This document shows positions 3,217 through 58,324 of a DNA stretch of 64,000 bases, in pieces. Position numbers and translations under genes: made by a program. The notes below the pieces were generated by a model, which saw only the letters and a list, made by a program, of their open reading frames with translations, made no database searches and was not told where the DNA came from. The DNA is from a virus. The DNA lies in IMG/VR virus record IMGVR_UViG_3300032331_002448, positions 20,150-84,149 of that record. The stretch is one strand, 5' to 3'. Position 1 is the stretch's first letter, and every line of letters starts with the position of its first letter.

Positions 3217-3657
3217 TTATTCGACTCTTACGAGATTTTCTGCAATAATTTCATCCCAGTCAACACGTTTAATTGACTTGAGCTGATCCAACCGCAGAAA
3301 CTTCTCGCCAGGCATCGAAGTTTGCAGATCTTTAATGTCTCTAGCTGTCTTTAATCCTACTCCAGGTAATGCGTCAGCAATCTGCCTGGCACTTGCCGTA
3401 TTGATATTCAATCGAACATCAACAGGGAACGTTTCTTTATTTGACGGTTCTGGAGGAGTAACGCCATCTTGCTTCAAGACTTCACGCAAGCGCTCCTTTG
3501 TCCGTTCTTTTTCATTGGTTGCGGAAAGATGCGGGACGAGGTTATCTTTTTCAAGATAATGAACCTCATCCTGCGCATCCACACACATTACAATTCCTTC
3601 GCCGTAATCAGCAAGGACTTCGACTAATCCGCCAGTCAGTTTGTATTGATAGAGCAT
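3217..3657 (-). CDS. helix-hairpin-helix (ComEA-like) DNA-binding protein
   Basis: LNINTASARQIADALPGVGLKTARDI. Confidence 0.75.
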   Translation of the reverse strand: MLYQYKLTGGLVEVLADYGEGIVMCVDAQDEVHYLEKDNLVPHLSATNEKERTKERLREVLKQDGVTPPEPSNKETFPVDVRLNINTASARQIADALPGVGLKTARDIKDLQTSMPGEKFLRLDQLKSIKRVDWDEIIAENLVRVE

Positions 3658-22108: not shown

Positions 22109-22345
22109 GTGACTGAGACCAATTTGCTGGCCAAGAAAGCTCTTGCGAAGGCAAAAGAGATGGGCTGGGAAGCCCGCTGCCAGTATGACCAGTCTGACGT
22201 GTTGGATTGGTCTACGGTGGTGGCTTGGGAGCCAGGTGCATCCCGAGCCCGCTACATAACGTTTATTGAAGGAACCGAAGCCCGCAAGGGCTGGGTTCCG
22301 TTGAAGGATATTGAGCAAAGGTTGAAGCGTACTGATTGTTACTGA
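22109..22345 (+). CDS. hypothetical early protein
   Basis: GAGG RBS plus GTG; stop lies inside the next RNA element. Confidence 0.6.
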   Translation: MTETNLLAKKALAKAKEMGWEARCQYDQSDVLDWSTVVAWEPGASRARYITFIEGTEARKGWVPLKDIEQRLKRTDCY

Positions 22346-22413
22346 GTGAAAGGCGTGAGCTGGGGGATCGAATCCCCCCACTTGGTGTTGCCTTTAGCGG
22401 AGATAGGCACCGC
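22340..22413 (+). ncRNA. tRNA-like junction plus pseudoknot A (copy 1)
   Basis: TACTGAG/CTTGGTG closing stem, GGGG-ATCGAAT-CCCC T-loop, TGCCT..GCGG-AGAT-AGGCA-CCGC. Confidence 0.7.
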
Positions 22414-22428
22414 GCAACGGAGAACACC

Positions 22429-22584
22429 GTGCAAGAAGGTACCGAAAGCTGGAAGATGGTTGTTGCACGCGCAGCAACTGCCGCCGTGCTGACGTATGTG
22501 ACGCGGGAAGCTGTGAAAGCAGCGGCCCCGCATGTAAAGCAGTTCCTTGTTTCAAAGTTTATGAAGCAAGAAGAAGCTGCATGA
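22429..22584 (+). CDS. small hypothetical protein (51 aa)
   Basis: GGAG RBS plus GTG 22429, in frame with the track ORF. Confidence 0.6.
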   Translation: MQEGTESWKMVVARAATAAVLTYVTREAVKAAAPHVKQFLVSKFMKQEEAA

Positions 22585-22585
22585 T

Positions 22586-22646
22586 GGCGAAACCAGTGGG
22601 CGCAAGCCCCTGGTCGGGTAGCTTGAGATGCTGCCCCTGACGAGCC
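22586..22646 (+). ncRNA. type II hammerhead ribozyme 1
   Basis: GGC-GAAA-stem III-GTC(22613-15)-stem I GGGTAGC/GCTGCCC-CTGACGA-GCC; full conserved core. Confidence 0.88.
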
Positions 22647-23017
22647 TCTCTTTATAGCTTAAATATACCTTTATATTTAACGAATCGCTATATATTATTA
22701 ACTAAATAGAGATTAATGCCCTTAAATAATACTATCACCCCCTTAAAACCCAGTCGTACCAACCCCTCTCACGTTTGGAACGCCAGGTAGGAAGTAACTG
22801 CGCAACGTGCAGAACGTGCGCTGCGTACCGCCTGTGGAGAGAGTATCTTGATGCTTTTGACACTTGATGCAGATTACTGCATTTAATCAGGAATTTTGCT
22901 TGGTAGTTAATTACCAGATGGTTGCCTCCAGGGAATTAACCCTAGATGCAGCCTTTAGGTTGCGATTAACAGCCTGAGCTTGTTGTCTGCATTGCAGGTA
23001 ACTGAGTAAAGGTTTTT

Positions 23018-23041
23018 TGCTCCAGGGAAGATAAGCACCCC
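23018..23041 (+). ncRNA. pseudoknot A (degenerate copy)
   Basis: TGCT-CCA-GGGA-AGAT-AAGCA-CCCC. Confidence 0.55.
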
Positions 23042-23057
23042 ACCGTTAGTTAAGACC

Positions 23058-23234
23058 ATGAAAGCTTTTGCTGTTGGTTTGATGATTGCTGCAGGTTTCA
23101 CAGCTGTAGCTACTGCACCGATCATGATGCGTAGCACCTATGAAGCTACTGCTGCCAGGTGCATTGCAAGAGGACTGCCTGTTACGGAAGCAACAGGTTA
23201 TCTCAAGCTTTGTAACGCCACATTGAACAACTGA
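23058..23234 (+). CDS. small exported/membrane protein (58 aa)
   Basis: Manually translated MKAFAVGLMIAAGFTAVATAP...; signal-like N-terminus, two Cys. Confidence 0.6.
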   Translation: MKAFAVGLMIAAGFTAVATAPIMMRSTYEATAARCIARGLPVTEATGYLKLCNATLNN

Positions 23235-23304
23235 GTCCGTCAAAGCGGCGTGCCTGGGTGCAAAACCCAGGCCAGTTATTGCCTCCAGAGGAGATGGGCA
23301 CCTC
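23229..23304 (+). ncRNA. tRNA-like junction plus pseudoknot A (copy 2)
   Basis: AACTG/CAGTT, CCG/CGG, GCCTGGG-TGCAAAA-CCCAGGC; TGCCT/GGGCA and GAGG/CCTC. Confidence 0.8.
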
Positions 23305-23321
23305 ACCAGCAGGAGAACACT

Positions 23322-23486
23322 GTGCTTGACACAGTAACAGTCGATCAGGACGAATATTACGAGCTTCTGCCTTGCGGTGGAGTTGTCGTAATACTGTACC
23401 GAGAATCGGCGCAAAACTCTGGCTATACGGTCGAAGAGTGTGATTTTGCACTCTACGGACCTGTAGAAAGAGAGGCTGAGCCGTAA
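23322..23486 (+). CDS. small acidic hypothetical protein (54 aa)
   Basis: AGGAG RBS plus GTG 23322. Confidence 0.6.
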   Translation: MLDTVTVDQDEYYELLPCGGVVVILYRESAQNSGYTVEECDFALYGPVEREAEP

Positions 23487-23548
23487 AGACGGCCTAGGGA
23501 GGTTTGATGCCTCCCACAGCTATTGCCTACAGCGGAGATAGGCACCGC
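23474..23548 (+). ncRNA. tRNA-like junction plus pseudoknot A (copy 3)
   Basis: GGCTG/CAGCT, CCGT/ACGG, GGGAGG-TTTGATG-CCTCCC; TGCCT/AGGCA and GCGG/CCGC. Confidence 0.8.
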
Positions 23549-23565
23549 ACACCAGGAGCACCCTG

Positions 23566-23817
23566 ATGACCACCTTTGAGTCTGTGAGCGAGCAACTGCA
23601 CCCGCAGTCCGCCTCGGTGTTTTATGCCACTGAGGAAGCAATGAAGAACATTGTTGCTAGCGATGAAATTGCTACGCGGAACAAGGTGATTGCTGTTGTT
23701 GCTGTTGCTGCAGGTGTTGCTGCAGGTGTTGCATACTTTGCAGCACGTTCAAGATTGAAGACCCGAGTCGCTGATCTAATGAAGAAGACAGTAACTACAA
23801 CTGCTGAGTCCGTTTAA
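23566..23817 (+). CDS. small single-TM hypothetical protein
   Basis: AGGAG RBS; VIAVVAVAAGVAAGVAYFAA. Confidence 0.65.
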   Translation: MTTFESVSEQLHPQSASVFYATEEAMKNIVASDEIATRNKVIAVVAVAAGVAAGVAYFAARSRLKTRVADLMKKTVTTTAESV

Positions 23818-23877
23818 GCGGCCAGGGAGGTGCAATGCCTCCCGTCAGCTATTGCCTACAGCGGAGATGGGCACCGC
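23803..23877 (+). ncRNA. tRNA-like junction plus pseudoknot A (copy 4)
   Basis: GCTGA/TCAGC, CCG/CGG, GGGAGG-TGCAATG-CCTCCC; TGCCT/GGGCA and GCGG/CCGC. Confidence 0.8.
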
Positions 23878-23894
23878 ACACACCTTGAGGTTTT

Positions 23895-24128
23895 ATGACC
23901 AGCAACACGTTGGTTTATGCTGTCCTTGGCCGTATTTATAGTGAATGCGGTTCAGATGAGACTTGGATTCATTCTGTTCACGCAAGTGAAGAAAGTGCGT
24001 ACGAGCAACGAGCTACTTTAATTAAAGAGTCTTTGCAGAATAAACTTGCTGAAATTGAAGCGGATAACAAAGTTTTTATTGATATGAGGAAGTATTGGAG
24101 TGTTGCAAGCTATGAACTAATCCGTTAA
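23895..24128 (+). CDS. small hypothetical protein
   Basis: GAGG RBS; ORF track. Confidence 0.65.
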   Translation: MTSNTLVYAVLGRIYSECGSDETWIHSVHASEESAYEQRATLIKESLQNKLAEIEADNKVFIDMRKYWSVASYELIR

Positions 24129-24190
24129 AGCGGGTGGCCAGGTGCAAACCCTGGCCTAGTTATTGCCCTGTTCGCGCCTTGGGCAAGCGC
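24115..24190 (+). ncRNA. tRNA-like junction plus variant pseudoknot (copy 5)
   Basis: AACTA/TAGTT, CCG/CGG, GGCCAGG-TGCAAAC-CCTGGCC; TTGCCC/GGGCAA and GCGC/GCGC. Confidence 0.75.
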
Positions 24191-24204
24191 ACCGCCTTGT
24201 AGCC

Positions 24205-24453
24205 GTGACTGAAGTTTCGGTGTACAACGTCATCCAGGATCTTCGTATCCTGGCACGAAGAGACTGGCCTGCTGGTCCTGTGGATCAGCAGTTAGAGTCC
24301 TTTAGGCTGCAGTTCTTCACTGCGTTTGAGCAGTGGATGGACGGCGCCACGGTAGATCTTGTTCCATTTATGGAGCACGCTACCAGAGTGGTCTCGGTCA
24401 ATCGAGACCTTGTGCGCTGGCTTAAGCGTAAGCTTGAGCAAGACGCTGTGTAG
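24205..24453 (+). CDS. small hypothetical protein
   Basis: GTG 24205 in frame with the track ORF; TAG stop is part of hammerhead stem II. Confidence 0.6.
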   Translation: MTEVSVYNVIQDLRILARRDWPAGPVDQQLESFRLQFFTAFEQWMDGATVDLVPFMEHATRVVSVNRDLVRWLKRKLEQDAV

Positions 24454-24522
24454 GCGAAACTGGGAGCTGTGCTTGCATGGTTCCCGGTCTGCCAGGTTGA
24501 CGCCCTGGCACTGATGAGCCTG
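24451..24522 (+). ncRNA. type II hammerhead ribozyme 2
   Basis: TAGGC-GAAA-12-bp stem III-GTC(24487-89)-stem I TGCCAGG/CCTGGCA-CTGATGA-GCCTG. Confidence 0.92.
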
Positions 24523-24576
24523 TCAGTAAACCTTGGTTACTTGTTGTTGCAATGAGTAACCGAGTAAAGGATATTA

Positions 24577-24600
24577 GCCTCCTAGGGAGATAGGCACCCT
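24577..24600 (+). ncRNA. pseudoknot A copy
   Basis: GCCT-CCT-AGGG-AGAT-AGGC-A-CCCT. Confidence 0.7.
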
Positions 24601-24629
24601 ACCAAGTTATCTAGAGGATAACGAAATCA

Positions 24630-24851
24630 ATGAGCAAAAGAAGGTATTACTTTTCTTTGCTCACTATGAGCACCGCAGCTGCCATTGTTTATGTTGGTGG
24701 CATTCGCTTGCAAGAACAGAGTAATGCTGCTGCAGTTAAACACTGTACTGGTATTTACAAAGTTGTATCAAGCTCTACAGCGTTTGGTCCTGTCAAACGT
24801 TGTGTTTCTATTGTTCAATCTGACGGTCCTTCACTTCCTTTGCAACCATGA
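24630..24851 (+). CDS. small membrane-anchored hypothetical protein
   Basis: GAGGA RBS; hydrophobic N-terminus, two Cys. Confidence 0.6.
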   Translation: MSKRRYYFSLLTMSTAAAIVYVGGIRLQEQSNAAAVKHCTGIYKVVSSSTAFGPVKRCVSIVQSDGPSLPLQP

Positions 24852-40759: not shown

Positions 40760-41287
40760 GTGGAAGAATTAATTTCACTGATCCAGAACGATCCTGAATT
40801 GTGGGAGATCGTTGATCGGCTTAAGCACCAGGACGAAGACCTGGATGATTTCATCTTGAGCATAGCTCAGATGCTTTCAATGGAGTTTGAAGAATTGCAT
40901 CGAACAGATCTCAGCGATAAACTGAGTGCTCTGTTCGGTGGTTTGCCTCCTACGGCGTTCCGTATGGCACCATTGATGTTGCACATTGCATTGGATATTT
41001 TCTTGATGCGTTCTATTCCTGATCACAATTCAATTCGGGATTGAACAATGCAAACAGGATTTGTTCTTTGCAGCCCAGATCTTTCTCGGGTTGTGTGTTT
41101 AACGCCAGACAAGAATGGGTTTCAATTAGAGGATGTTGAAAACACTTTAGTGTTGAACCGTGCCATGTGCTTTCACAACCGCACAGAAGCAAAAAACATC
41201 TTAGGTCGCATTGAAGCTCAAGTAAAAAGAGAGTTAGATATTGAAGTTAAAAATATTGCTCTCCTCTACAAAAAGTTTTACGGATGA
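40760..41287 (+). other. two small hypothetical ORFs upstream of the polymerase
   Basis: ORF track 40760..41044 and 41048..41287. Confidence 0.55.
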
Positions 41288-43131
41288 CTCGTTTCATTCT
41301 TGACATTGAAACCAATGGTTTGCTTCCTGTTCTTACAAAGATCCACTCTATTGTTCTAAGGAATGTAGACACAGGAGATGTAATTAGTTGTGCTGATGAT
41401 CCTGATTATTTCAGTATTGAAAGAGGGCTTGATTACATCTCTGAAGCTACAGAATTGATTGGCCATAACGTCATTAAGTTTGACCTGCCAGTAATTAAAA
41501 AGTTGTATCCAGTCCTTACATTGCGTGATGACTGTAAAATTTATGACACTTTAATTACTAGCAGATTGTTTTGGCCTGAGCTAGATGATGTAGATCATGC
41601 CAGGTGGAGTCACATTGATAAGAAGTACGTTGGCAGACATTCGCTTGCAGCCTGGGGTGAACGCCTAGGTGTTGCCAAGATTGCATTCAAAGAAGAAACA
41701 AAGAAAGAAGATAAAGGTAAAGATGTATGGGCTGAATGGACTCAAAGTATGCAAGTTTATTGCGAACAAGACACTTTGGTTTCATTAAAGTTGTATGAGT
41801 ATATGTTGAGTCAGGATGCTGATCCTCGTTCAGTTGAGCTAGAGCATGAGTTTGCAAAAGTAATTGCAAAGCAAGAAGGATTTGGTTTTCCCTTTAATGA
41901 GAAAGCTGCTTACGCTTTGGTCAATACATTAAAAGCAAAACGTGGTGAGCTTGCTGAAGAATTACAGCAAGTGTTCCCTCGTATTGTTCAAGAACGTTGG
42001 TCAACCAAAACAGGTAAGCGCCTCAAAGACAACGTCATTGAATTTAATCCTGCTTCTAGGCAGCAAACTGCTGACCGCTTGAAGGCAAAGTACCCTGAGA
42101 TTACTTTTGAAACAACAGATAAAGGTAATCCTCAAGTTGATGATGATGTTCTTGAAGCGTTAGGTAAGAATTATCCAGAAGCTAAGTTGCTTGCTGAGTA
42201 CCAGCTGCTAAACAAACGGTTAGGTCAGATTGCAGAAGGTAAAGAAGCATGGTTTAAACACTGCCAGGTTTACGGTGATGGTCGCATCCACGGGGAGGTT
42301 GTGACCAATGCTTGCATCAGTGGTAGGTGCGCTCACAAGCGGCCCAACATGGCCCAGGTACCTAGCGTTGGTCATGCGTACGGTGCTGAATGCCGTGCAT
42401 TGTTCTATGCCCCAGAGGGTTGGACCCTGGTGGGAGCCGACGCTTCTGGTTTGGAGCTACGTGCTTTGGCTGCTTGGCTTGCTTACTGGGATGATGGGGA
42501 GTACGCCCGTCTTGTCAGTGATCCTGCCAGTGATATTCATACTTACAATGCGTTAATGTTTGGTATTTATGATAACAATGAACCTATAAGTAAAGCTACT
42601 AGGGATCTATCAAAGCGTTTGATTTATTGTATTTTGTATGGTGGCGGAGCAAAGAAGACAGGTTCAATTATTTGTCCAGAAAAATTTGAAGATCAACAGT
42701 ACAGACAAGGAAAGAAAACTATTGATACTTTCTACTCTAATCTTCCTGCTATTAAATCATTGAAAGATACAATTGATAAGAGAGTTGATGCTAAAGGTTA
42801 TCTTACAGGTATTGATGGTAGGCGTTTGCAAATTAGATCCAAGCACTCAGCTTTGAATCAATTGTTACAATCTACTGGTGCGTTATTAATGAAAAAAGCT
42901 ACTTGTATTTTGCATGATGATTTAGAAGAGCAAGGTTTAAAACATCATAAAGATTGGGGGTTTTGTGTTTTTTGTCATGACGAATGGCAAATTCTAACAA
43001 AACCTTATTGTGTAAATATTGTTGCAGAAACATCAGTTAATGCTATTGAAAAAGCGGGAAAGTATTTCAATTTGAAATGTTTGTTTACAGGTGAGTATCG
43101 GATAGGTCAAAATTGGCAGGAAACACATTAA
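41284..43131 (+). CDS. polA: family A DNA polymerase (T7-like, with 3'-5' exonuclease)
   Basis: ExoI ILDIET, motif A DASGLELR, motif B RDLSKRLIYCILYG, motif C HDEWQ. Confidence 0.95.
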   Translation: MTRFILDIETNGLLPVLTKIHSIVLRNVDTGDVISCADDPDYFSIERGLDYISEATELIGHNVIKFDLPVIKKLYPVLTLRDDCKIYDTLITSRLFWPELDDVDHARWSHIDKKYVGRHSLAAWGERLGVAKIAFKEETKKEDKGKDVWAEWTQSMQVYCEQDTLVSLKLYEYMLSQDADPRSVELEHEFAKVIAKQEGFGFPFNEKAAYALVNTLKAKRGELAEELQQVFPRIVQERWSTKTGKRLKDNVIEFNPASRQQTADRLKAKYPEITFETTDKGNPQVDDDVLEALGKNYPEAKLLAEYQLLNKRLGQIAEGKEAWFKHCQVYGDGRIHGEVVTNACISGRCAHKRPNMAQVPSVGHAYGAECRALFYAPEGWTLVGADASGLELRALAAWLAYWDDGEYARLVSDPASDIHTYNALMFGIYDNNEPISKATRDLSKRLIYCILYGGGAKKTGSIICPEKFEDQQYRQGKKTIDTFYSNLPAIKSLKDTIDKRVDAKGYLTGIDGRRLQIRSKHSALNQLLQSTGALLMKKATCILHDDLEEQGLKHHKDWGFCVFCHDEWQILTKPYCVNIVAETSVNAIEKAGKYFNLKCLFTGEYRIGQNWQETH

Positions 43132-47890: not shown

Positions 47891-48490
47891 ATGGCTGACA
47901 ACGCTTCCTTTCTTCAACTTTCCGAGTCAATTCAAAACATTCAATTCCTTAAAGATACTCCTGAGGTATCAGAGGATGAACGAAAAGAATTAGAGCAGTA
48001 TCTCAGTGATCTTGCTTCCAGGCAGGAGTCAAAGTTTGATGCAATCATTGGCATGATCAAAAAGTGCGATGGTTATATTGAGGCACTGCAGAATGAAGCA
48101 AATGAAATACAGGCAAACCTTGAATCTTGGAAAAAGAATAAACAGAATATGATTAACATCATCAAGTTTGCTTACCAGCAGAATCTAATTAGTAACAAAC
48201 CTACAGGCATTAAATATCAGGCAACTATTAAAAAGGTTAAACCACGGCTAGTTGATAATTTTGCTAACTGGGATGAGGTAGAACGTGCTGAGTTTGGCCT
48301 TAGGAAAACTATAATTGTAACTCGTGTAAAAGATGAAACAATTTTAGATATTAAACATGAAGAACTTCCCGATAAAGATAGGGTAAGGGAAGAGCTGGTT
48401 GCTGATTCAGGTTTGGCACCAGTGTCAGCTCAATTGATTCCAGGAGTTTCTTTTGTTTATGCGCGTCGCAAACGGTTGACGGCTAGTTAA
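47891..48490 (+). CDS. siphovirus Gp157-like protein
   Basis: Coiled-coil [12 protein letters not shown]...IEALQNEA; C-terminal IPGV. Confidence 0.65.
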
Positions 48491-48523: not shown

Positions 48524-49084
48524 ATGACTTACACTGATCAATTTGGTATTGGCGACATTGTTGTTAGAATTGGCGGCAGAAAGCCAGCTCAAATTGAACG
48601 TACCACTTGGCGTACTAAAGATTCTTACAATGGAACTCATTGGTATTGCAAATACCTTCCACCAGGGAAGGGCGGTTTTGAAACTTACGACGGCTTATTA
48701 AAACCTTACGACAACCCTGAGGAAACAATGTCTGAAACAAAAACGCTTTACTCTTTCAAAAAAGAAGATGGCACCATTGGTTATGGCAGTCACATCGGTA
48801 CTAACTCAAGTAACAACTACTTGATTGAGGAAAAAGGCACTGGAGAAATCCACGTCTTTAATGTTAAAGATCTGGAAGAAGTTCTTCCTTATACGTTCTC
48901 TGCAACTATCGCAGGCAAAGAAACGCACTATGTTTGCGCTCCAGATGCTGTAAAGAAAGGTGACTATCTTCTTTATACGTCAGGTAGTACGCCGCAAATT
49001 GCTGTGGTTACTGCTATTGATACAAAAAACAAAGCGGCACGTTCCAAGTTCCGTGGCAAACGCCTTTTGCTAGAGGACCTGTAA
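48524..49084 (+). CDS. hypothetical protein
   Basis: ORF track. Confidence 0.6.
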   Translation: MTYTDQFGIGDIVVRIGGRKPAQIERTTWRTKDSYNGTHWYCKYLPPGKGGFETYDGLLKPYDNPEETMSETKTLYSFKKEDGTIGYGSHIGTNSSNNYLIEEKGTGEIHVFNVKDLEEVLPYTFSATIAGKETHYVCAPDAVKKGDYLLYTSGSTPQIAVVTAIDTKNKAARSKFRGKRLLLEDL

Positions 49085-49101
49085 TCTGCTAAGATTGCAA
49101 A

Positions 49102-49304
49102 GACAGAGCTGAAACCTCTGTTGAGTCCTTGAGGCTCCTCACGTTTCAGCCTTCACGTTCTTCCGGTACCGGAGGGGTCGCGCTTGTTAGCCTCATTGAC
49201 AAGCTCATCAGGGATGGAACCTGAACATACAGGGCAGTCAGCTTCCAAACCTGACGTAAGCCCCGCCCCCTTCAAGCCTCCTAACAGTGCTCAAACAGAA
49301 GGGG
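49102..49304 (+). ncRNA. candidate multi-pseudoknot structured RNA
   Basis: Six consecutive hairpins with complementary loops; TGCTAAGAT extended -10 just upstream. Confidence 0.6.
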
Positions 49305-49308
49305 TTCT

Positions 49309-49373
49309 GGCGCCTAGACTGGAAGTCGTTGAGCCCATAGCTCAGAAGATCCGTTCGATTCGGATAGGCGCCC
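49309..49373 (+). tRNA. minimal tRNA-like element, anticodon CAT
   Basis: GGCGCCT/AGGCGCC acceptor, GAC/GTC D-arm, TTGAG-CCCATAG-CTCAG, ATCCG-TTCGATT-CGGAT; no encoded CCA. Confidence 0.65.
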
Positions 49374-49390
49374 TTGATTTGTGTAGAAAT

Positions 49391-49720
49391 ATGAAGATTC
49401 ATTGGGCGCTGGCGGCAGCTGCTTTATTTTTGTGGAGCCTCTTTGGTTTCTTTGTGTCTGAAGCAAATCTTAATGTTGACCCTCAGGCGCCAGAGCCTGC
49501 TAAGGTTTATCCAATCTACGGGTACAGCAAAATTGAACAGTGTACTTCAGCTTCTAAAGTTAAAAAGAAAGGGGTTCGCTGTTGGGAAGTTGAAATTGTT
49601 GACGACAATATTCCCATCACTAACGAGCTTATGGAAGCCCTTCAATGGAAAGAAGATGATGTAATCGAATGGCAAGTAACTGAAGACGGTTTCCTTTCTT
49701 TCAAGCGAGCTGAAAAGTAA
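49391..49720 (+). CDS. membrane-anchored protein with AbrB-like C-terminus
   Basis: ATG 49391; TM helix; IPITNELMEALQWKEDDVIEW. Confidence 0.55.
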   Translation: MKIHWALAAAALFLWSLFGFFVSEANLNVDPQAPEPAKVYPIYGYSKIEQCTSASKVKKKGVRCWEVEIVDDNIPITNELMEALQWKEDDVIEWQVTEDGFLSFKRAEK

Positions 49721-52006: not shown

Positions 52007-53311
52007 CTACCTGCTAATCTCTTCCCAGTCCATTGCAGCATAGATGTTGGTATTAGTTGCATTAGATGCTGCTACAAGCGTAGTTTCAAACGGAGTGCTA
52101 GTAAATGTGTTGCGTTCTAACTGAAACTTAAACAAAGCTTCTTTAAGAATGTCTACAGCACTTACTGCTTGGTTTGATGCACTGATAAATCCTTGGGCTA
52201 AGATGCGTCCTCCTGTAAAGCTGGTTCCTGTAATGTTGTACTCAACAGCTGAGTCAGTACCAGCACTTACCCATGTGCCTCCAGTGGTTGCACCAGATGC
52301 AACAAGCTGCCAATTGTAGTTAGCATTATTGGTAATCCCCATAATGGATAGTGCAGTAATAATTGCAATTGCATCTAATCTATTGGGAGATGTTTTTAAT
52401 CTAAGAGAAACAATTGGGTAATAAGTACCTGCAAGAGTTAAGTTTTTTGGTGTTGTAATTGGTGTGGCAACTCCTTGTTGAGCGCCACGCAGTTCATAGC
52501 CTCCTTCTGATAAAACAGTAGAGCAAATTTGTTTTAGTGTGCTGTTGCTAGCAGTTGCTCCTGTATTCTCAATCTCATAACGCAATGGCAAAGATGCTGT
52601 TGTAATGTATGTTGAAGTAATTAGGTTTGCATGTTCAAATTCATGGCAAAGAATAAACTTACCATCAATAACAAACCCTAAACGTACAGTGCCAAGGCCC
52701 AACCACTCAATGTCCATCCAAAGGATCTGAGCTTTGGTAATATCAAGTTGGATGCCAGATGGCCCTGACCCATCCATTGGGTCAATGTTCCAGGCTGACT
52801 GTGCAGCTTTTGTTTCTGCTAAAACGCCACTAACTGAACTGCGTTCAACAAAAGAAAGCAAAGTTCCATCAAGCTCCAGGTACATGCCATTAGCGTCTCC
52901 GTAATACCCAACACGTTGTCTAAGGTTGGCTTTTGCAGAACCAAAAACAAATGTTGTCATTATCAGCAGTGACTTGCCTGGCTGGTAAGAAAAAACTTTT
53001 GTTGTTTCTCGATAGACCTTGGAGCCTGACGTAGTAGTGGTTGTCAGGTTAACCAAGCCTTCATTTACACTAAAGGTTGCTGCACCGCCAGATGCTGTCA
53101 GTGTGTCCCAAAGTCCGTTGTCTCGATACCGATGACTGGAATCAAACAACGTAAGCGGATTGGAAACCCGTTGCCTACCAAAAGCATCCAGTGATGTTGG
53201 TTTAATGCCTGCGCCAGGATCAGTTGTTACTTTGACAGGAACATTATCGTAATTCTTGACTTGAACAACTTCGTACCGCAGGTCATCACTAGGATCAATA
53301 ATGGTTGCCAC
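52007..53311 (-). CDS. beta-rich virion structural/spike-like protein
   Basis: DAFGRQRVSNPLTLFDS, YQPGKS and EWLGLG motifs typical of cyanophage structural proteins. Confidence 0.65.
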   Translation of the reverse strand: MATIIDPSDDLRYEVVQVKNYDNVPVKVTTDPGAGIKPTSLDAFGRQRVSNPLTLFDSSHRYRDNGLWDTLTASGGAATFSVNEGLVNLTTTTTSGSKVYRETTKVFSYQPGKSLLIMTTFVFGSAKANLRQRVGYYGDANGMYLELDGTLLSFVERSSVSGVLAETKAAQSAWNIDPMDGSGPSGIQLDITKAQILWMDIEWLGLGTVRLGFVIDGKFILCHEFEHANLITSTYITTASLPLRYEIENTGATASNSTLKQICSTVLSEGGYELRGAQQGVATPITTPKNLTLAGTYYPIVSLRLKTSPNRLDAIAIITALSIMGITNNANYNWQLVASGATTGGTWVSAGTDSAVEYNITGTSFTGGRILAQGFISASNQAVSAVDILKEALFKFQLERNTFTSTPFETTLVAASNATNTNIYAAMDWEEISR

Positions 53312-55750: not shown

Positions 55751-58324
55751 GTGACAACTGCAACTCCAGATTTTGACGGCTCATCAAGTGCTCTTCTGCC
55801 AGGGCAGATTAATCTGGATTTGATTCCTGCTGATTTTCCTCTTACTGCATTACGCGATAAAAAAGCATATCTTCCTAACTGGCCCAACAGTCCCCTAACT
55901 CTTACAGAAATTAAGAAAGAGTTAGATTCTGGCCGGGCAACAGGTGTTGGTTTGATCTGCGGTCAGTTCAGCAATGAACTAGCGTTGATTATGGTTGATG
56001 TGGATGGCAAAGATGCTATTCCAGAAATTGAAGCGTTGGGCGGCGGTTCTATTGATGAAATTTTTCCTCCAACACTTGCAATTAGCAGCGGTAAAGAAGG
56101 GCGGTTTCGTTTATTGTTTAGGGTTCCTACCAGCAGAATCCAAGAGATTCCAGATAAAGCAACCTTACGGGTTGATAGTGCGCCATGGGAGATTCTTTGG
56201 CGGTCTCGTCAAGGTGCAATCATGGGATCTCATCCTGAGACTCCTGGTTATTTCACATTAGCTGGCCAGGGATTTGAGCACGTTAAAAAGTTGCCTGAAA
56301 TGCCTGAGTGGCTTTACAAAGCAATTGATAAAGCGTACCCAAACAATAAGTATCGGCGGCGCTCAAGCAACGAAATTACTGGTCACGTAACTCAAAACAT
56401 TACTCTTGCTTACGAAGAGGGTACTACATACCACAAAGAAGAAATTATTGCAGAAGCTCTGACTTACCTGCAACATATTGATCTTGCTAGAGCTGATGAT
56501 TATCACCAGTGGGTGACCATTGGCATGGCCCTGCATCAAATTGACAATGACCTTCTAGAGATTTGGACTGAGTGGTCAGAAGAGTCTGATGCTTATCAAG
56601 AAGGTTGTTGCGATGTTAAATGGGAAAGTTTTGAGCGCCTGCCAGGGGGACATTCACCTGAAGGTGGGCGTGGATTGCATACGTTGCGTGCAATTGCCAA
56701 AGAAGATGGTTACATTGAAGTCAGTGGGATTACTGTGCCAACACAAGAGGAGTTTGAGCGCCAGCTGGAAGAAGGTATTTATGACGATGTAATGCAGGAA
56801 GGTGACAGCAGTTACTGGAATCAAGTCACAAAGCTTGTTTCTTTAATTGATGAAGGTGGTGGCAACAATAAATCAGAAAAAAATGGTAAGCATCGCAATC
56901 CACCTGCTTCTGTCATTGCTGATTACCTATTTGATCGGTATCGCAGCAACCACTGGCGGTACGATCCACGGTTTGAAACTTGGTTGCAGTACGCAAAAGA
57001 ACGTGGTATCTGGTTGCGGCAGCCATACCGTGAACATTTCCTTCATGATGTTCAATTCTCACTGCATACCTTGCAGTTGCCTGGAGGATACACCTCAAAG
57101 CTGGTGTCAGATGTTGCCAACCTTCTTCGGCATGGTCTTATCTGCGATGAATGGGATGAGTATCCGTCCCGTTTAGCTTTCTCTAATGGTGTATTGGAGT
57201 TGGATACGGGTGAATTTCTTGAGCACTCACCAGAAAACTACATTACTTGGGGGATCAATTTTGATTACATCCCCAGTGCTGAGCCAGGTCCTATCACAGA
57301 TTGGTTGTACAGGACGCAGTACAACGATGATGCCAGGGTTCAAGTGCTGCGGGCATGGCTCCGTGCTTGTTTAGTTGGTAAAGGTCATGAGCTGCAGCGT
57401 TTTCTTGAATTGATTGGCCCTGGTGGTCGAGGCAAGTCCACCTTTGCCAACCTTTGTTGTGCTTTGGTTGGCTTAGGGAATTACGCCAGCACAACACTGA
57501 ACCAGCTGGAGCAAAGCAGGTTTGAGGTTGCTTCCATTAAAGGAAAACGGCTGACGCTGATCAATGACTCAGAACGTTATGGTGGTTCTGCTCAGATCTT
57601 TAAAGCGTTAACAGGTGGTGATAACCTGCGCTATGAAGAAAAGATGAAGAATATTGGTGAACCGTTTGTGTACACCGGAATGGTTATGGTGGTTGCTAAT
57701 GAACCAATTCAAACAACGGACAACACCAGTGGTCTTGGTCGTCGGCGCTTAACGGTTGAGTTTAATCGACGGCTGTATGACAAGAACAGTGACGCTAAGG
57801 ACATGATTAAGATTGATAATGGGGTTATTAGTGGTGTCTGGCGTAATTATTTACCTGGTTTAGTGAATTGGGTATTGCAGATGAGTGAGCTAGATATGCG
57901 CCGTTATCTTCTTGACACTCAAGAGCTTGTGCCAGCACTTAAGAAAGTCAGGAATACCATCCTGTTAAACAGTAACAACTTGATTGAATGGCTGCAATCT
58001 GAAGTTGTTGCTGATACAGATCATGTTTCTGCTGTAGGTAAGAAGATTCCTGCTAGTAAGGACACGCCAGAGCGGTACTGCAATAGCAACAGCCACCTGT
58101 ATCCCAGCTACTGCGCATACTGTGAAGACACTGGATCAAAGCCAGTGGGTCAAAAACGGTTTATTGCTTTGCTTCTTGATTGCTGCCGTAACCAGTTAGA
58201 GCTATCTAACGTGTTTGCATTCAGCAAAAACGGTCGTCCTTTTGTTAAAGGTCTAGCCGTGCGTAATAGTGATCAGAAGTTTAAGAATTACGCTACTATT
58301 CTTCCTGAAAAAGAAGAGAGTTAA
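55751..58324 (+). CDS. primase-polymerase / PriCT-2 / D5-like SF3 helicase fusion
   Basis: VDVDG, DDYHQWVTIGMAL, LAFSNGVL, Walker A GPGGRGKST, KALTGGD. Confidence 0.92.
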   Translation: MTTATPDFDGSSSALLPGQINLDLIPADFPLTALRDKKAYLPNWPNSPLTLTEIKKELDSGRATGVGLICGQFSNELALIMVDVDGKDAIPEIEALGGGSIDEIFPPTLAISSGKEGRFRLLFRVPTSRIQEIPDKATLRVDSAPWEILWRSRQGAIMGSHPETPGYFTLAGQGFEHVKKLPEMPEWLYKAIDKAYPNNKYRRRSSNEITGHVTQNITLAYEEGTTYHKEEIIAEALTYLQHIDLARADDYHQWVTIGMALHQIDNDLLEIWTEWSEESDAYQEGCCDVKWESFERLPGGHSPEGGRGLHTLRAIAKEDGYIEVSGITVPTQEEFERQLEEGIYDDVMQEGDSSYWNQVTKLVSLIDEGGGNNKSEKNGKHRNPPASVIADYLFDRYRSNHWRYDPRFETWLQYAKERGIWLRQPYREHFLHDVQFSLHTLQLPGGYTSKLVSDVANLLRHGLICDEWDEYPSRLAFSNGVLELDTGEFLEHSPENYITWGINFDYIPSAEPGPITDWLYRTQYNDDARVQVLRAWLRACLVGKGHELQRFLELIGPGGRGKSTFANLCCALVGLGNYASTTLNQLEQSRFEVASIKGKRLTLINDSERYGGSAQIFKALTGGDNLRYEEKMKNIGEPFVYTGMVMVVANEPIQTTDNTSGLGRRRLTVEFNRRLYDKNSDAKDMIKIDNGVISGVWRNYLPGLVNWVLQMSELDMRRYLLDTQELVPALKKVRNTILLNSNNLIEWLQSEVVADTDHVSAVGKKIPASKDTPERYCNSNSHLYPSYCAYCEDTGSKPVGQKRFIALLLDCCRNQLELSNVFAFSKNGRPFVKGLAVRNSDQKFKNYATILPEKEES

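Follow-up and report, generated by a model that had tools for sequence, protein, structure and literature searches.

An abiF-like hairpin within a chain of exchangeable RNA modules in a lake phage may act as an orphan antitoxin decoy

Positions 49087-49373 of the analysed window, a 64,000-nt stretch of phage DNA, probably specify a non-coding structured RNA on the + strand. The locus appears to be a chain of independently folding, exchangeable modules expressed from one predicted promoter, not one compact fold; our analysis established its anatomy, covariation and modularity and the absence of a toxin gene. One module resembles the abiF motif, scoring slightly under the cut-off of that family, and we judge the chances evenly balanced that it serves as an orphan antitoxin decoy against host AbiF and is released by tRNA-processing enzymes. 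We found no paper describing a phage-borne orphan abiF hairpin with a tRNA-like element, nor any description of phage-borne orphan abiF RNAs in the literature searched, although supplements may list examples. The source is a freshwater (lake) phage with a complete genome of 84 kb and terminal repeats. The phage that carries the array is of the lytic type.

The abiF-motif hairpin occupies 49267..49304 (+ strand) and consists of an outer stem, CCCCTTC (49267-73) with GAAGGGG (49298-304), an inner helix, AGC (49275-77) with GCT (49289-91), and the conserved single strands AAGCCTCCTAACAGT and CAAACA. An earlier, sequence-only reading of this DNA had pointed out the stem and could not assign the RNA to a family. 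At gathering thresholds, no Rfam match was obtained in the whole window. When we searched 48900-49600 (701 nt), the hairpin matched the abiF motif, RF03085, at 49268-49304 across all model positions 1-37 with 36.3 bits (E = 7.5e-05), 0.7 bits below the gathering score of 37. This is the sole RF03085 match in the whole phage genome (E = 2.2e-6 per genome), and its alignment keeps the unpaired AAGCCUC, AAC and UGCUCAAA and the AGC/GCU inner helix. A related phage locus at the same genomic spot (L008) scored 55.3 bits with RF03085. Our own model, R1, gave the window hairpin 59.3 bits and three other loci 53.6-57 bits (L056, L059 and L063), the window, L056 and L063 being part of the R1 seed. The outer stem, which has 7 perfect pairs in the window, is real: across 29 hairpins 91.4% of cells were paired, 7/7 pairs had changed on both sides and 0/500 shuffles matched this, in a set of hairpins chosen by loop only from which 3 of 32 distinct rows had been removed beforehand as having no stem.

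In the passages that bear on it in three reports, the abiF motif is the antitoxin RNA of AbiF, binding directly and acting in trans (bioRxiv 10.1101/2025.04.15.648962; PMC12737573; PMC13064643). The complete 84-kb phage genome held no match to Abi_2 (PF07751) at E up to 1, so the hairpin does not stand upstream of an abiF gene as the definition of RF03085 describes. Abi_2 was likewise absent (E up to 0.01) from 36 other viral records with the hairpin, only 2 of which are at least 90% complete. Of about 185,579 species genomes, no more than 8 contained the exact loop, and just 5 of these, all gut-type or other non-lake taxa, had a stem as well. Among the ORFs tested, Abi_2 lay 3' of the hairpin in only 1/5 stem-bearing bacterial loci; bacterial locus L054 has the same hairpin upstream of Abi_2. 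No AbiF system with an exact-loop hairpin was found from freshwater bacteria among these species genomes; it is therefore the Rfam family definition, together with papers on other bacteria, that ties the hairpin to AbiF.

Within the window and 88 related loci, only 7 of the 89 sources hold the hairpin, which is why we regard it as dispensable cargo. Flanking genes vary among carriers, and no neighbouring gene is constant outside one syntenic phage group. The best isolate relatives were phages of Roseobacter, Pelagibacter and Synechococcus at 41-43% identity; neither psbA nor a metallophosphoesterase was found in the phage genome. For the DNA polymerase and the upstream gene, the closest isolates are two cultured cyanophages, S-EIVl and S-CRM01; neither gave an RF03085 match, but as control genomes in that search were equally without one, the result carries little weight. 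With blastn, neither the whole locus nor the part comprising the abiF hairpin and tRNA-like element matched any isolate phage, and plasmids gave no match either.

The alternative that survives best, which we nevertheless consider unlikely, is that these phage small RNAs bind something other than AbiF, whether a protein of the host or the phage or a target RNA, and that the abiF likeness reflects a shared protein-binding fold. It would be in keeping with the lack of Abi_2 in all 36 viral records, with the failure of the species-genome survey to show a freshwater host system, with the occurrence of exact-loop hairpins in 36 viral contigs as opposed to 8 species genomes, and with the other modules, whose loops are conserved and belong to no known family. 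However, the match spans every conserved unpaired position of a family that is defined, in the passages of one source, by its position before abiF genes (bioRxiv 10.1101/2025.04.15.648962), and a constant neighbour gene is missing outside the one syntenic group.

A 4-nt linker (TTCT, 49305..49308, +) joins the abiF stem to a 65-nt tRNA-like element (49309..49373, +), and cleavage by RNase P is predicted at 49308/49309. The element has an acceptor stem (49309-15/49366-72), a D arm (GAC/TGGAA/GTC), an anticodon stem (49329-33/49341-45) and a T arm (ATCCG/TTCGATT/CGGAT). Its anticodon loop, CCCATAG, places CAT at 49336-38 and C at position 33, the discriminator base is C and no CCA is encoded. 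A tRNA-like 3' domain had been proposed before, and the shape is genuine: ARAGORN called 49309-49373 as tRNA-Met(CAT), our own model R2 gave the element 67.5 bits, and the cloverleaf covaries, with 92.5% of cells paired and 18/21 pairs changed on both sides in an alignment fitted to the model. One natural variant combines G49331A with C49343T, a compensatory change. ARAGORN reported no tmRNA and there was no Rfam match to one.

A tRNA-shaped element follows the hairpin at a fixed offset in 19 of the 36 viral contigs, its start lying 12 nt past the loop pattern in 21/39 contexts. The elements found after the abiF hairpin fall into at least four unlike sequence types, a variety that fits a processing signal better than a sequence-specific partner. 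Where the tRNA-like element is missing, the genes 3' of the hairpin are mutually unrelated (an AlpA-like regulator, a DNA methylase, a deacetylase and genes without an assigned function).

The 3' element could instead be a working tRNA, for example of Ile type with CAU (lysidine-modified) or GAU, which would serve codons rare in a GC-rich host, the upstream part being leader or cargo. The ARAGORN call and covarying cloverleaf would suit this, as would the T loop TTCGATT, a GG in the D loop, CAT or GAT in 10/12 aligned members and the true tRNAs found at the equivalent spot in relatives. We think it improbable nonetheless, because the Rfam tRNA model (RF00005, gathering score 29 bits) had no match at E up to 10 in 48900-49600 and none at gathering in the whole window, U occupies position 33 in only 4/12 members, positions 4:69 are mismatched in 7/12, the window element has a single base between the acceptor and D stems and a D stem of 3 bp, and the 'anticodon' switches between relatives that are 87% identical.

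Still less probable is that the hairpin is the cognate antitoxin of an RNA-controlled toxin encoded by the phage itself, one that Pfam does not recognise and that would serve in superinfection exclusion or addiction. Many genes of the phage have no family, and AbiF systems occur in prophages according to passages of one source (bioRxiv 10.1101/2025.04.15.648962), but the results with Abi_2 in the complete genome and in the 36 other viral records, together with the differing genes that flank the hairpin among carriers, argue against a toxin of this kind.

The predicted promoter (49067..49095, +) consists of TTGCTA at 49067-72, a 17-nt spacer ending in TG (49087-88) and the -10 box TAAGAT at 49090-95, its 5' part lying within the end of ORF 48524..49084. 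It probably functions as an extended -10 promoter, with TGCTAAGAT at 49087-95 as the extended -10 box. A simple promoter scan left it unlisted (8/12 matches, threshold 9). A TAnnnT box lies 6-9 nt 5' of GAYAGAG in 20/20 instances of module 1 and is preceded by TGn in 16 of them, and this kept position agrees with the earlier proposal that the RNA starts just after TGCTAAGAT. Some contigs have a promoter directly 5' of the abiF hairpin.

Module 1, the 5' leader (49102..49154, +), runs through GACAGAG, GCTGAAAC (49108-15), CTCTG, an inner hairpin, CAC, GTTTCAGC (49143-50) and CTTC, and was found in 19 instances from related and unrelated phage contigs. The sequence-only reading had proposed one multi-pseudoknot RNA of about 270 nt with three loop-mediated pairings, the first of which joins CTGAAAC (49109) to GTTTCAG (49143-49). 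This pairing is real and covaries: with a flanking G-C pair it makes an 8-bp helix that occurs in 16 distinct versions with 127/128 cells paired, the version in L063 being CCGGAAC/GTTCCGG. It is, however, the closing helix of module 1, in which a pseudoknot may form. The competing hairpin, GACAGAG (49102) with CTCTGTT (49116), is near-invariant in sequence and has an A.C mismatch in 13/19 instances.

Modules 2-4 make up a conserved hairpin unit (49160-49224). Module 2 (49160..49175, +), CTTCCGG (49160)-TA-CCGGAGG (49169) followed by the linker GGTCGC, is present in the sequence and in the minimum-energy fold; pairs were not counted for it because the register of the hairpin differs in relatives. 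Module 3 (49182..49204, +) pairs GCTTGTTA (49182) with TGACAAGC (49197) around the loop GCCTCAT, and module 4 (49208..49224, +) pairs TCAGG (49208) with CCTGA (49220) around GATGGAA. Both covary in 5 sequences: all 8 pairs of module 3 and all 5 of module 4 are 100% paired, with 4 and 3 pairs, respectively, changed on both sides (7/13 combined). The invariance of GCCTCAT is an artefact of using this loop to find relatives. The 15-base pattern of module 3 was found in 42 viral stretches with only 3 real hairpins, and the other occurrences probably arose by chance within coding sequence. A conserved GAGG immediately 5' of module 3 might pair with the CCUC of the module 3 loop. Module 5 (49237..49255, +), seen in the sequence and the fold, pairs GTCAG (49237) with CTGAC (49251) around CTTCCAAAC; homologues for pair counting were not found. 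The modules other than the abiF hairpin have conserved loops and matched no known family in Rfam. A comparison of modules 1-5 with the first 46 loci by local blastn and nhmmer gave a single weak match, in L027, on the strand opposite to the abiF hairpin of that locus.

Natural variants separate these modules. Among contigs of lake-metagenome runs, all of them DNA with no RNA run turning up for this stretch, some carry a clean deletion of exactly 49155-49255 with the remainder intact, from which we conclude that the modules are separable, and others have lost 49156/57-49231, again with the remainder intact. The deletions begin immediately after 49154, the 3' border of module 1, and their junctions coincide with module borders. 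Module 5 was kept without modules 2-4 in contigs of runs X3, X4 and X5 and lost together with them in contigs of X2, X3 and X5. The closest relative, L063, has no block 49155-49255.

All strings and hairpins cited in the sequence-only reading were found in place by a string check, and its view of a non-coding structured RNA on the + strand is supported. The + strand folded at -106.7 kcal/mol (z -2.58; 2/100 shuffles equal or better), and the - strand gave z -1.52 (8/100). Against 1000 dinucleotide shuffles of 49087-49373, the region had 9 non-overlapping hairpins (6.1 +/- 1.3 in shuffles; 9 reached in 32/1000) and 3 hairpin loops with a 6-nt complement (0.76; 34/1000), while 4 loops with a 5-nt complement elsewhere (2.5; 226/1000) were not significant.

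The remaining two loop pairings are not conserved. TGAGGC (49130-35), thought to contact GCCTCA (49190-95), is absent from the 60 nt or less 5' of the 15-base pattern in the four other carriers of the GCCTCAT hairpin (L059, L137, L142 and L159), and L063 retains module 1 without any GCCTCA hairpin. TGGAA (49215-19) was to pair with TTCCA (49243-47), but the loop reads GATGGGA in those four relatives with no TCCCA in the 70 nt after the pattern, and metagenome contigs retain the TTCCA hairpin without the TGGAA hairpin. One compact RNA of about 270 nt, folded or multimerised through three loop pairings as a small cousin of GOLLD or ROOL, is hardly credible. In its favour are the presence of the complementary strings, a mild enrichment of loops with 6-nt partners and the possible pairing of GAGG with the CCUC loop. 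Against it, relatives do not preserve two of the three pairings, some natural deletions remove one proposed partner and leave the other, the remaining pairing is an ordinary closing helix, and no Rfam match to GOLLD or ROOL was obtained (at gathering in the window; at E up to 10 in 48900-49600).

A further reading treated the region as the N-terminus of ORF 49184..49720, which would have made it coding. We rejected this: one variant carries a 101-nt deletion, not a multiple of 3, changes between relatives compensate one another in stems, the sequence of L063 differs downstream, and the ATG at 49394 opens a 108-aa protein instead. This downstream gene (49394..49720, +), outside the RNA, encodes a membrane-type protein with a hydrophobic N-terminus that belongs to phrog_661 (function unknown) and has no Pfam family.

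For the decoy antitoxin, we infer transcription, processing, binding to AbiF and the host from sequence and picture the following. The phage has no AbiF gene of its own. During infection host transcription would fall, and the host antitoxin RNA with it; the phage-made hairpin would then bind the host AbiF RNase and keep it blocked. The tRNA-shaped element would be a cutting signal for RNase P and, on its 3' side, RNase Z, the cuts releasing a hairpin with a defined 3' end and separating the downstream mRNA. The 5' leader helix would protect the 5' end and the remaining modules would be further cargo. Members of the tRNA-like family keep a CAUAG/GAUAG loop and G18-G19-type bases that a pure cutting signal would not need, and this counts against the proposal, as does the shortfall of the window hairpin from the gathering score. 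A broader version, to which we give only a small chance, makes the array a multivalent RNA anti-defence cassette in which every exchangeable module imitates a different RNA of host immunity or toxin control and the mini-tRNA is itself a decoy (substrate or antitoxin mimic) for a tRNA-directed HEPN-type nuclease. Phages would then shuffle the modules by recombination at their borders, and such arrays would be the equivalent in RNA of the anti-defence islands that encode proteins.

Recent work describes AbiF as a type III toxin-antitoxin defence and the ancestor of Cas13; to our knowledge, little has been reported on how phages escape it. A review of phage counter-measures from November 2026 does not mention AbiF in the passages searched. 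If the decoy reading holds, a natural, widespread phage copy of the antitoxin would be the first RNA counter-measure against the AbiF family and, after ToxIN, the second natural case of the antitoxin-mimic strategy. The tRNA-punctuated build suggests a general way of delivering several small anti-defence RNAs from one promoter and would account for part of the unassigned structured RNA in phage tRNA clusters. In practical terms, it would yield a short RNA as a candidate inhibitor of AbiF and early Cas13-like nucleases.

Among known systems, T4 rnaC and rnaD are small RNAs of a phage tRNA cluster, and tRNA operons are punctuated by RNase P and RNase Z, for both of which an acceptor and T arm suffice. 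The array resembles these in having structured non-tRNA RNA co-transcribed, as predicted, with a tRNA-shaped unit; here, in contrast, the unit measures only 65 nt, its anticodon loop is non-canonical and the RNA joined to it carries a motif related to defence. GOLLD and ROOL are also phage-borne, structured and near tRNAs, but each forms one large fold, whereas the RNA described here is much shorter and consists of separable hairpins in a row. Phage phiTE reportedly makes a pseudo-ToxI RNA that acts against ToxIN. In this case, as in T-even phages with DarG-like antitoxins, in phage sk1 with its hairpin and, as proposed, in the lake phage, the phage supplies a copy or mimic of the antitoxin and the toxin stays blocked; unlike these, the hairpin studied here is carried within a predicted multi-module, tRNA-punctuated transcript. 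The orphan DarG-like antitoxins of T-even phages act against DarTG, according to passages of one report (PMC13728456). Lactococcal phage sk1 has in its cos site a hairpin that inhibits AbiF and is said, in the passages concerned, to be unlike AbiF RNA (PMC13064643), whereas ours would be a true copy of the abiF motif. The closest likeness is to abiF RNA itself (RF03085), named AbiFr for Prevotellaceae AbiF and RCd22 in Clostridioides difficile, with which it shares a 37-nt hairpin, an outer stem of 6-7 bp, the AGC/GCU inner helix and the order AAGCCUC..AAC..UGCUCAAA. In passages of its description, the published RNA binds and blocks the AbiF HEPN RNase, in trans too (bioRxiv 10.1101/2025.04.15.648962); in the lake phage, by contrast, the hairpin falls 0.7 bits under the cut-off and is an orphan, the genome having no abiF gene. 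It lies inside the RNA array of a lytic-type phage, a long way downstream of its predicted promoter, and is joined to a tRNA-shaped element.

Positions 49087-49373 (plus strand) contain a conserved, non-coding chain of modules preceded by a predicted promoter. One module is an abiF-type hairpin with no accompanying abiF gene, and a tRNA-shaped element follows it at a fixed distance. The window spans 20150-84149 in an IMG/VR virus record of 84,149 bp, which has direct terminal repeats and a completeness rating of 100%. Around the array, the window encodes a family A DNA polymerase (41284-43131), a Gam-like protein (47891-48490), a virion structural protein (52007-53311, minus strand) and a primase (55751-58324). 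The structural protein shares 66% identity with its counterparts in Puniceispirillum phage HMO-2011 and cyanomyoviruses, and the polymerase 41-43% with those in Roseobacter podophages, Pelagibacter podophages and Synechococcus phage S-EIVl; psbA was not found in the phage genome. DNA runs containing parts of the locus were labeled as lake, freshwater or aquatic metagenomes.

The locus is intergenic. The upstream ORF (48524..49084) stops at 49084; the listed ORF 49184..49720 opens at a TTG and includes an ATG at 49394 that begins a hydrophobic 108-aa protein. G+C content is 0.50-0.54 across 49000-49399 versus mostly 0.35-0.45 on both flanks. Among isolates, the sole match to the adjoining upstream gene was in freshwater Synechococcus phage S-CRM01, where the homolog (g172) sits inside the tRNA cluster (locus L136). 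The roughly 315 unannotated bases after g172 (L136 3457-3771) contain a degenerate tRNA-shaped stretch with the T arm GGTTCGATTCC. A search of S-CRM01 with Rfam family RF03085 gave no abiF match, and control genomes gave none in the same search.

Relatives gathered by a search with the upstream protein (8 viral and 80 metagenome loci) have a TATAAT-like -10 box, mostly preceded by TGn, directly after the homologous stop codon. This box lies 6-9 nt 5' of a conserved GAYAGAG in 20/20 instances, with TGn in 16 of them; in the window it reads TGC-TAAGAT (49087-95), with TTGCTA 17 nt upstream. After GAYAGAG, module 1 (the 5' leader, 49102-49154) consists of a variable inner hairpin enclosed by an 8-bp helix, whose strands in the window are GCTGAAAC and GTTTCAGC and whose flanks (CYCUG, CAC and C(A/U)UC) are conserved. 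Across 19 instances, in which the helix takes 16 distinct forms, 127 of 128 cells were paired; the 3' strand was taken to be whichever stretch within 160 nt complemented best, and in 18 of the 19 the conserved flanks anchor it. In L063, the closest relative, the helix is CCGGAAC/GTTCCGG. The sequence-only reading had described a single RNA of about 270 nt with several pseudoknots, held by three loop-mediated pairings. The first of these is the 8-bp helix, which is well supported; the pseudoknot it would form with the local hairpin GACAGAG/CTCTGTT is unproven because this competing hairpin is nearly invariant in sequence and has an A.C mismatch in 13/19 instances. In L003 (3541-3660, two copies), L005, L008, L055, L056 and L059, all loci from the comparison set, the inner hairpin resembles an anticodon arm, with a CA(C/G/A)AUAG or CAAACAG loop identical to that of the miniature tRNA-like element.

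The middle modules are hairpins at 49160-49175, 49182-49204, 49208-49224 and 49237-49255 (modules 2 to 5). L063 lacks 49155-49255 entirely, and variant forms were read from contigs of other lake metagenomes aligned to the window. Contigs from runs X2, X3 and X5 skip the same interval, and others from X3, X4 and X5 skip 49156/57-49231 with 3-4 different letters in its place. Because these junctions coincide with module borders, the modules are separable cassettes. Contigs from three lake-metagenome runs have a 529-nt insertion directly 3' of the tRNA-like element (window 49375-49382), and other contigs differ in sequence upstream of 49086; therefore, the array occurs in varying contexts.

Modules 3 and 4 recur together in L059, L137, L142 and L159, and at least two of these loci also have a hairpin where module 2 would lie. 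The stems of modules 3 and 4 were 100% paired in five sequences, with both sides changed in 7 of 13 pairs; the module 3 loop, GCCUCAU, was set by the search pattern, and that of module 4 is GAUGGRA. The other two loop contacts that had been proposed were not conserved, since their partners were missing from the flanks of these four relatives: TGAGGC was absent from the up to 60 nt inspected upstream of the 15-base pattern, and TCCCA from the 70 nt downstream. Compared with shuffles, the loop complementarities were only modestly unusual. A conserved GAGG immediately 5' of module 3 is predicted to be able to pair with CCUC of the module 3 loop.

At gathering thresholds, no Rfam family, hammerheads among them, matched anywhere in the window, including 22340-24630. 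A permissive search of 48900-49600 gave one meaningful match, to the abiF RNA (RF03085), covering all 37 model positions at 49268-49304 within the hairpin at 49267-49304; it scored 36.3 bits, below the cut-off of 37 (E 7.5e-05). Nowhere else in the phage genome did an abiF-type match occur, and our models of the abiF hairpin (R1, with the window in its seed; E up to 1) and of the miniature tRNA-like element (R2; E up to 0.001) found no further match in the window. Published reports describe the abiF motif as a non-coding RNA 5' of abiF genes that binds and neutralises the AbiF HEPN RNase, also in trans; AbiF thus counts as a type III toxin-antitoxin system, and it has been proposed as an ancestor of Cas13 (bioRxiv 10.1101/2025.04.15.648962; PMC12737573, PMC13064643, PMC12948488).

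The hairpin's loop pattern was present in 36 viral contigs; among about 185,579 species genomes, 8 had it, five of these 8 with a stem and one (L054) with Abi_2 downstream. The outer stem covaries over 29 distinct hairpins that had been selected by loop only, 3 of the 32 distinct rows having been removed beforehand because they lacked a stem: 91.4% of cells were paired, 52 differed on both sides, and 0/500 shuffles did as well. Abi_2 was detected at E up to 0.01 in none of the 36 viral records, which are mostly fragments, only 2 being at least 90% complete. R1 matched 7/89 sources, five with the compact hairpin (the window, L008, L063, L056 and L059) and two with a form that carries an insertion (L003 and L055); the hairpin is therefore variable cargo. 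A variant with a long extra hairpin in place of the central loop was seen in L002, L003, L004, L055, L060 and L061, 5' of their tRNA or tRNA-like element, with flanks such as CCCCTCATGCTTAGC...GATGCACAAACCGAGGGG; it scored 27.9 bits with Rfam (L003) and 33-35 bits with R1 (L003, L055).

After a 4-base linker, ARAGORN predicted a 65-nt tRNA-Met(CAT) at 49309-49373; the Rfam tRNA model had no match in the permissive search of 48900-49600. In the window and in 19 of the 36 viral contigs (the union of three separate scans), a tRNA-shaped element begins at a constant offset, 12 nt 3' of the loop pattern; downstream genes in contexts without it are unrelated to one another. These elements differ in type: 65-69-nt miniatures as in the window, forms with two T arms (L012, L033) and others (L008, L027). 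R2 recovered 14 strong miniature members (67-98 bits), and the cloverleaf was 92.5% paired with both sides changed in 18/21 pairs, in an alignment fitted to the model. One metagenome variant carries the compensatory changes G49331A and C49343T in the anticodon stem; another has C49335A at loop position 33. R2 also matched module 1 of L008 weakly (3540-3631; 24.4 bits) because the inner hairpin shares the CACAUAG loop. Several features speak against a role in decoding, as the ARAGORN call would imply: among the miniature members, only 4/12 have U at position 33, the triplet is CAT, GAT or GAC, and many have a 4:69 mismatch; in the window, just one base links the acceptor and D stems. Conservation of the anticodon-like loop is a hint that the element does more than mark a cut.

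Elsewhere, a calcineurin-type metallophosphoesterase of about 190 aa (phrog_547) lies directly 3' of the abiF/tRNA-like unit in 12 loci (L012, L014, L016, L019, L026, L029, L038, L040, L042, L044, L046 and L056); speculatively, it could act on the 2',3'-cyclic phosphate ends that HEPN RNases leave. No homolog of it is present in the genome to which the window belongs. In 10 loci a protein of about 244 aa lies 5' of the unit and matches the ribonucleotide reductase beta subunit (tested in L046), with a large-subunit-like protein of about 480 aa farther upstream in 7. ORFs with a Cys/His-rich C-terminus, HNH homing endonuclease-like by eye, follow the array in L006, L007, L003 and L058, and L004 and L005 also contain inserted ORFs; taken together, this suggests that endonucleases drive shuffling of the locus. 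Two further viral records are related to each other, and one of them is classified as proviral (L011 4018-5691 and L024 4469-6193, both minus strand); in both, a terminator-like hairpin comes after the abiF hairpin, and then a 558-575-aa protein without a Pfam or PHROG family.

We infer that the phage-made RNA may serve as a decoy of the host AbiF antitoxin, and that tRNA-processing enzymes would free the decoy hairpin; the decoy reading draws on the published behavior of the motif and on the fact that phages are known to supply antitoxin mimics. The literature searched contained no description of an orphan phage abiF copy fused to tRNA look-alikes in a cassette-like RNA array; the hairpin family and the antitoxin-mimic strategy themselves are already known.
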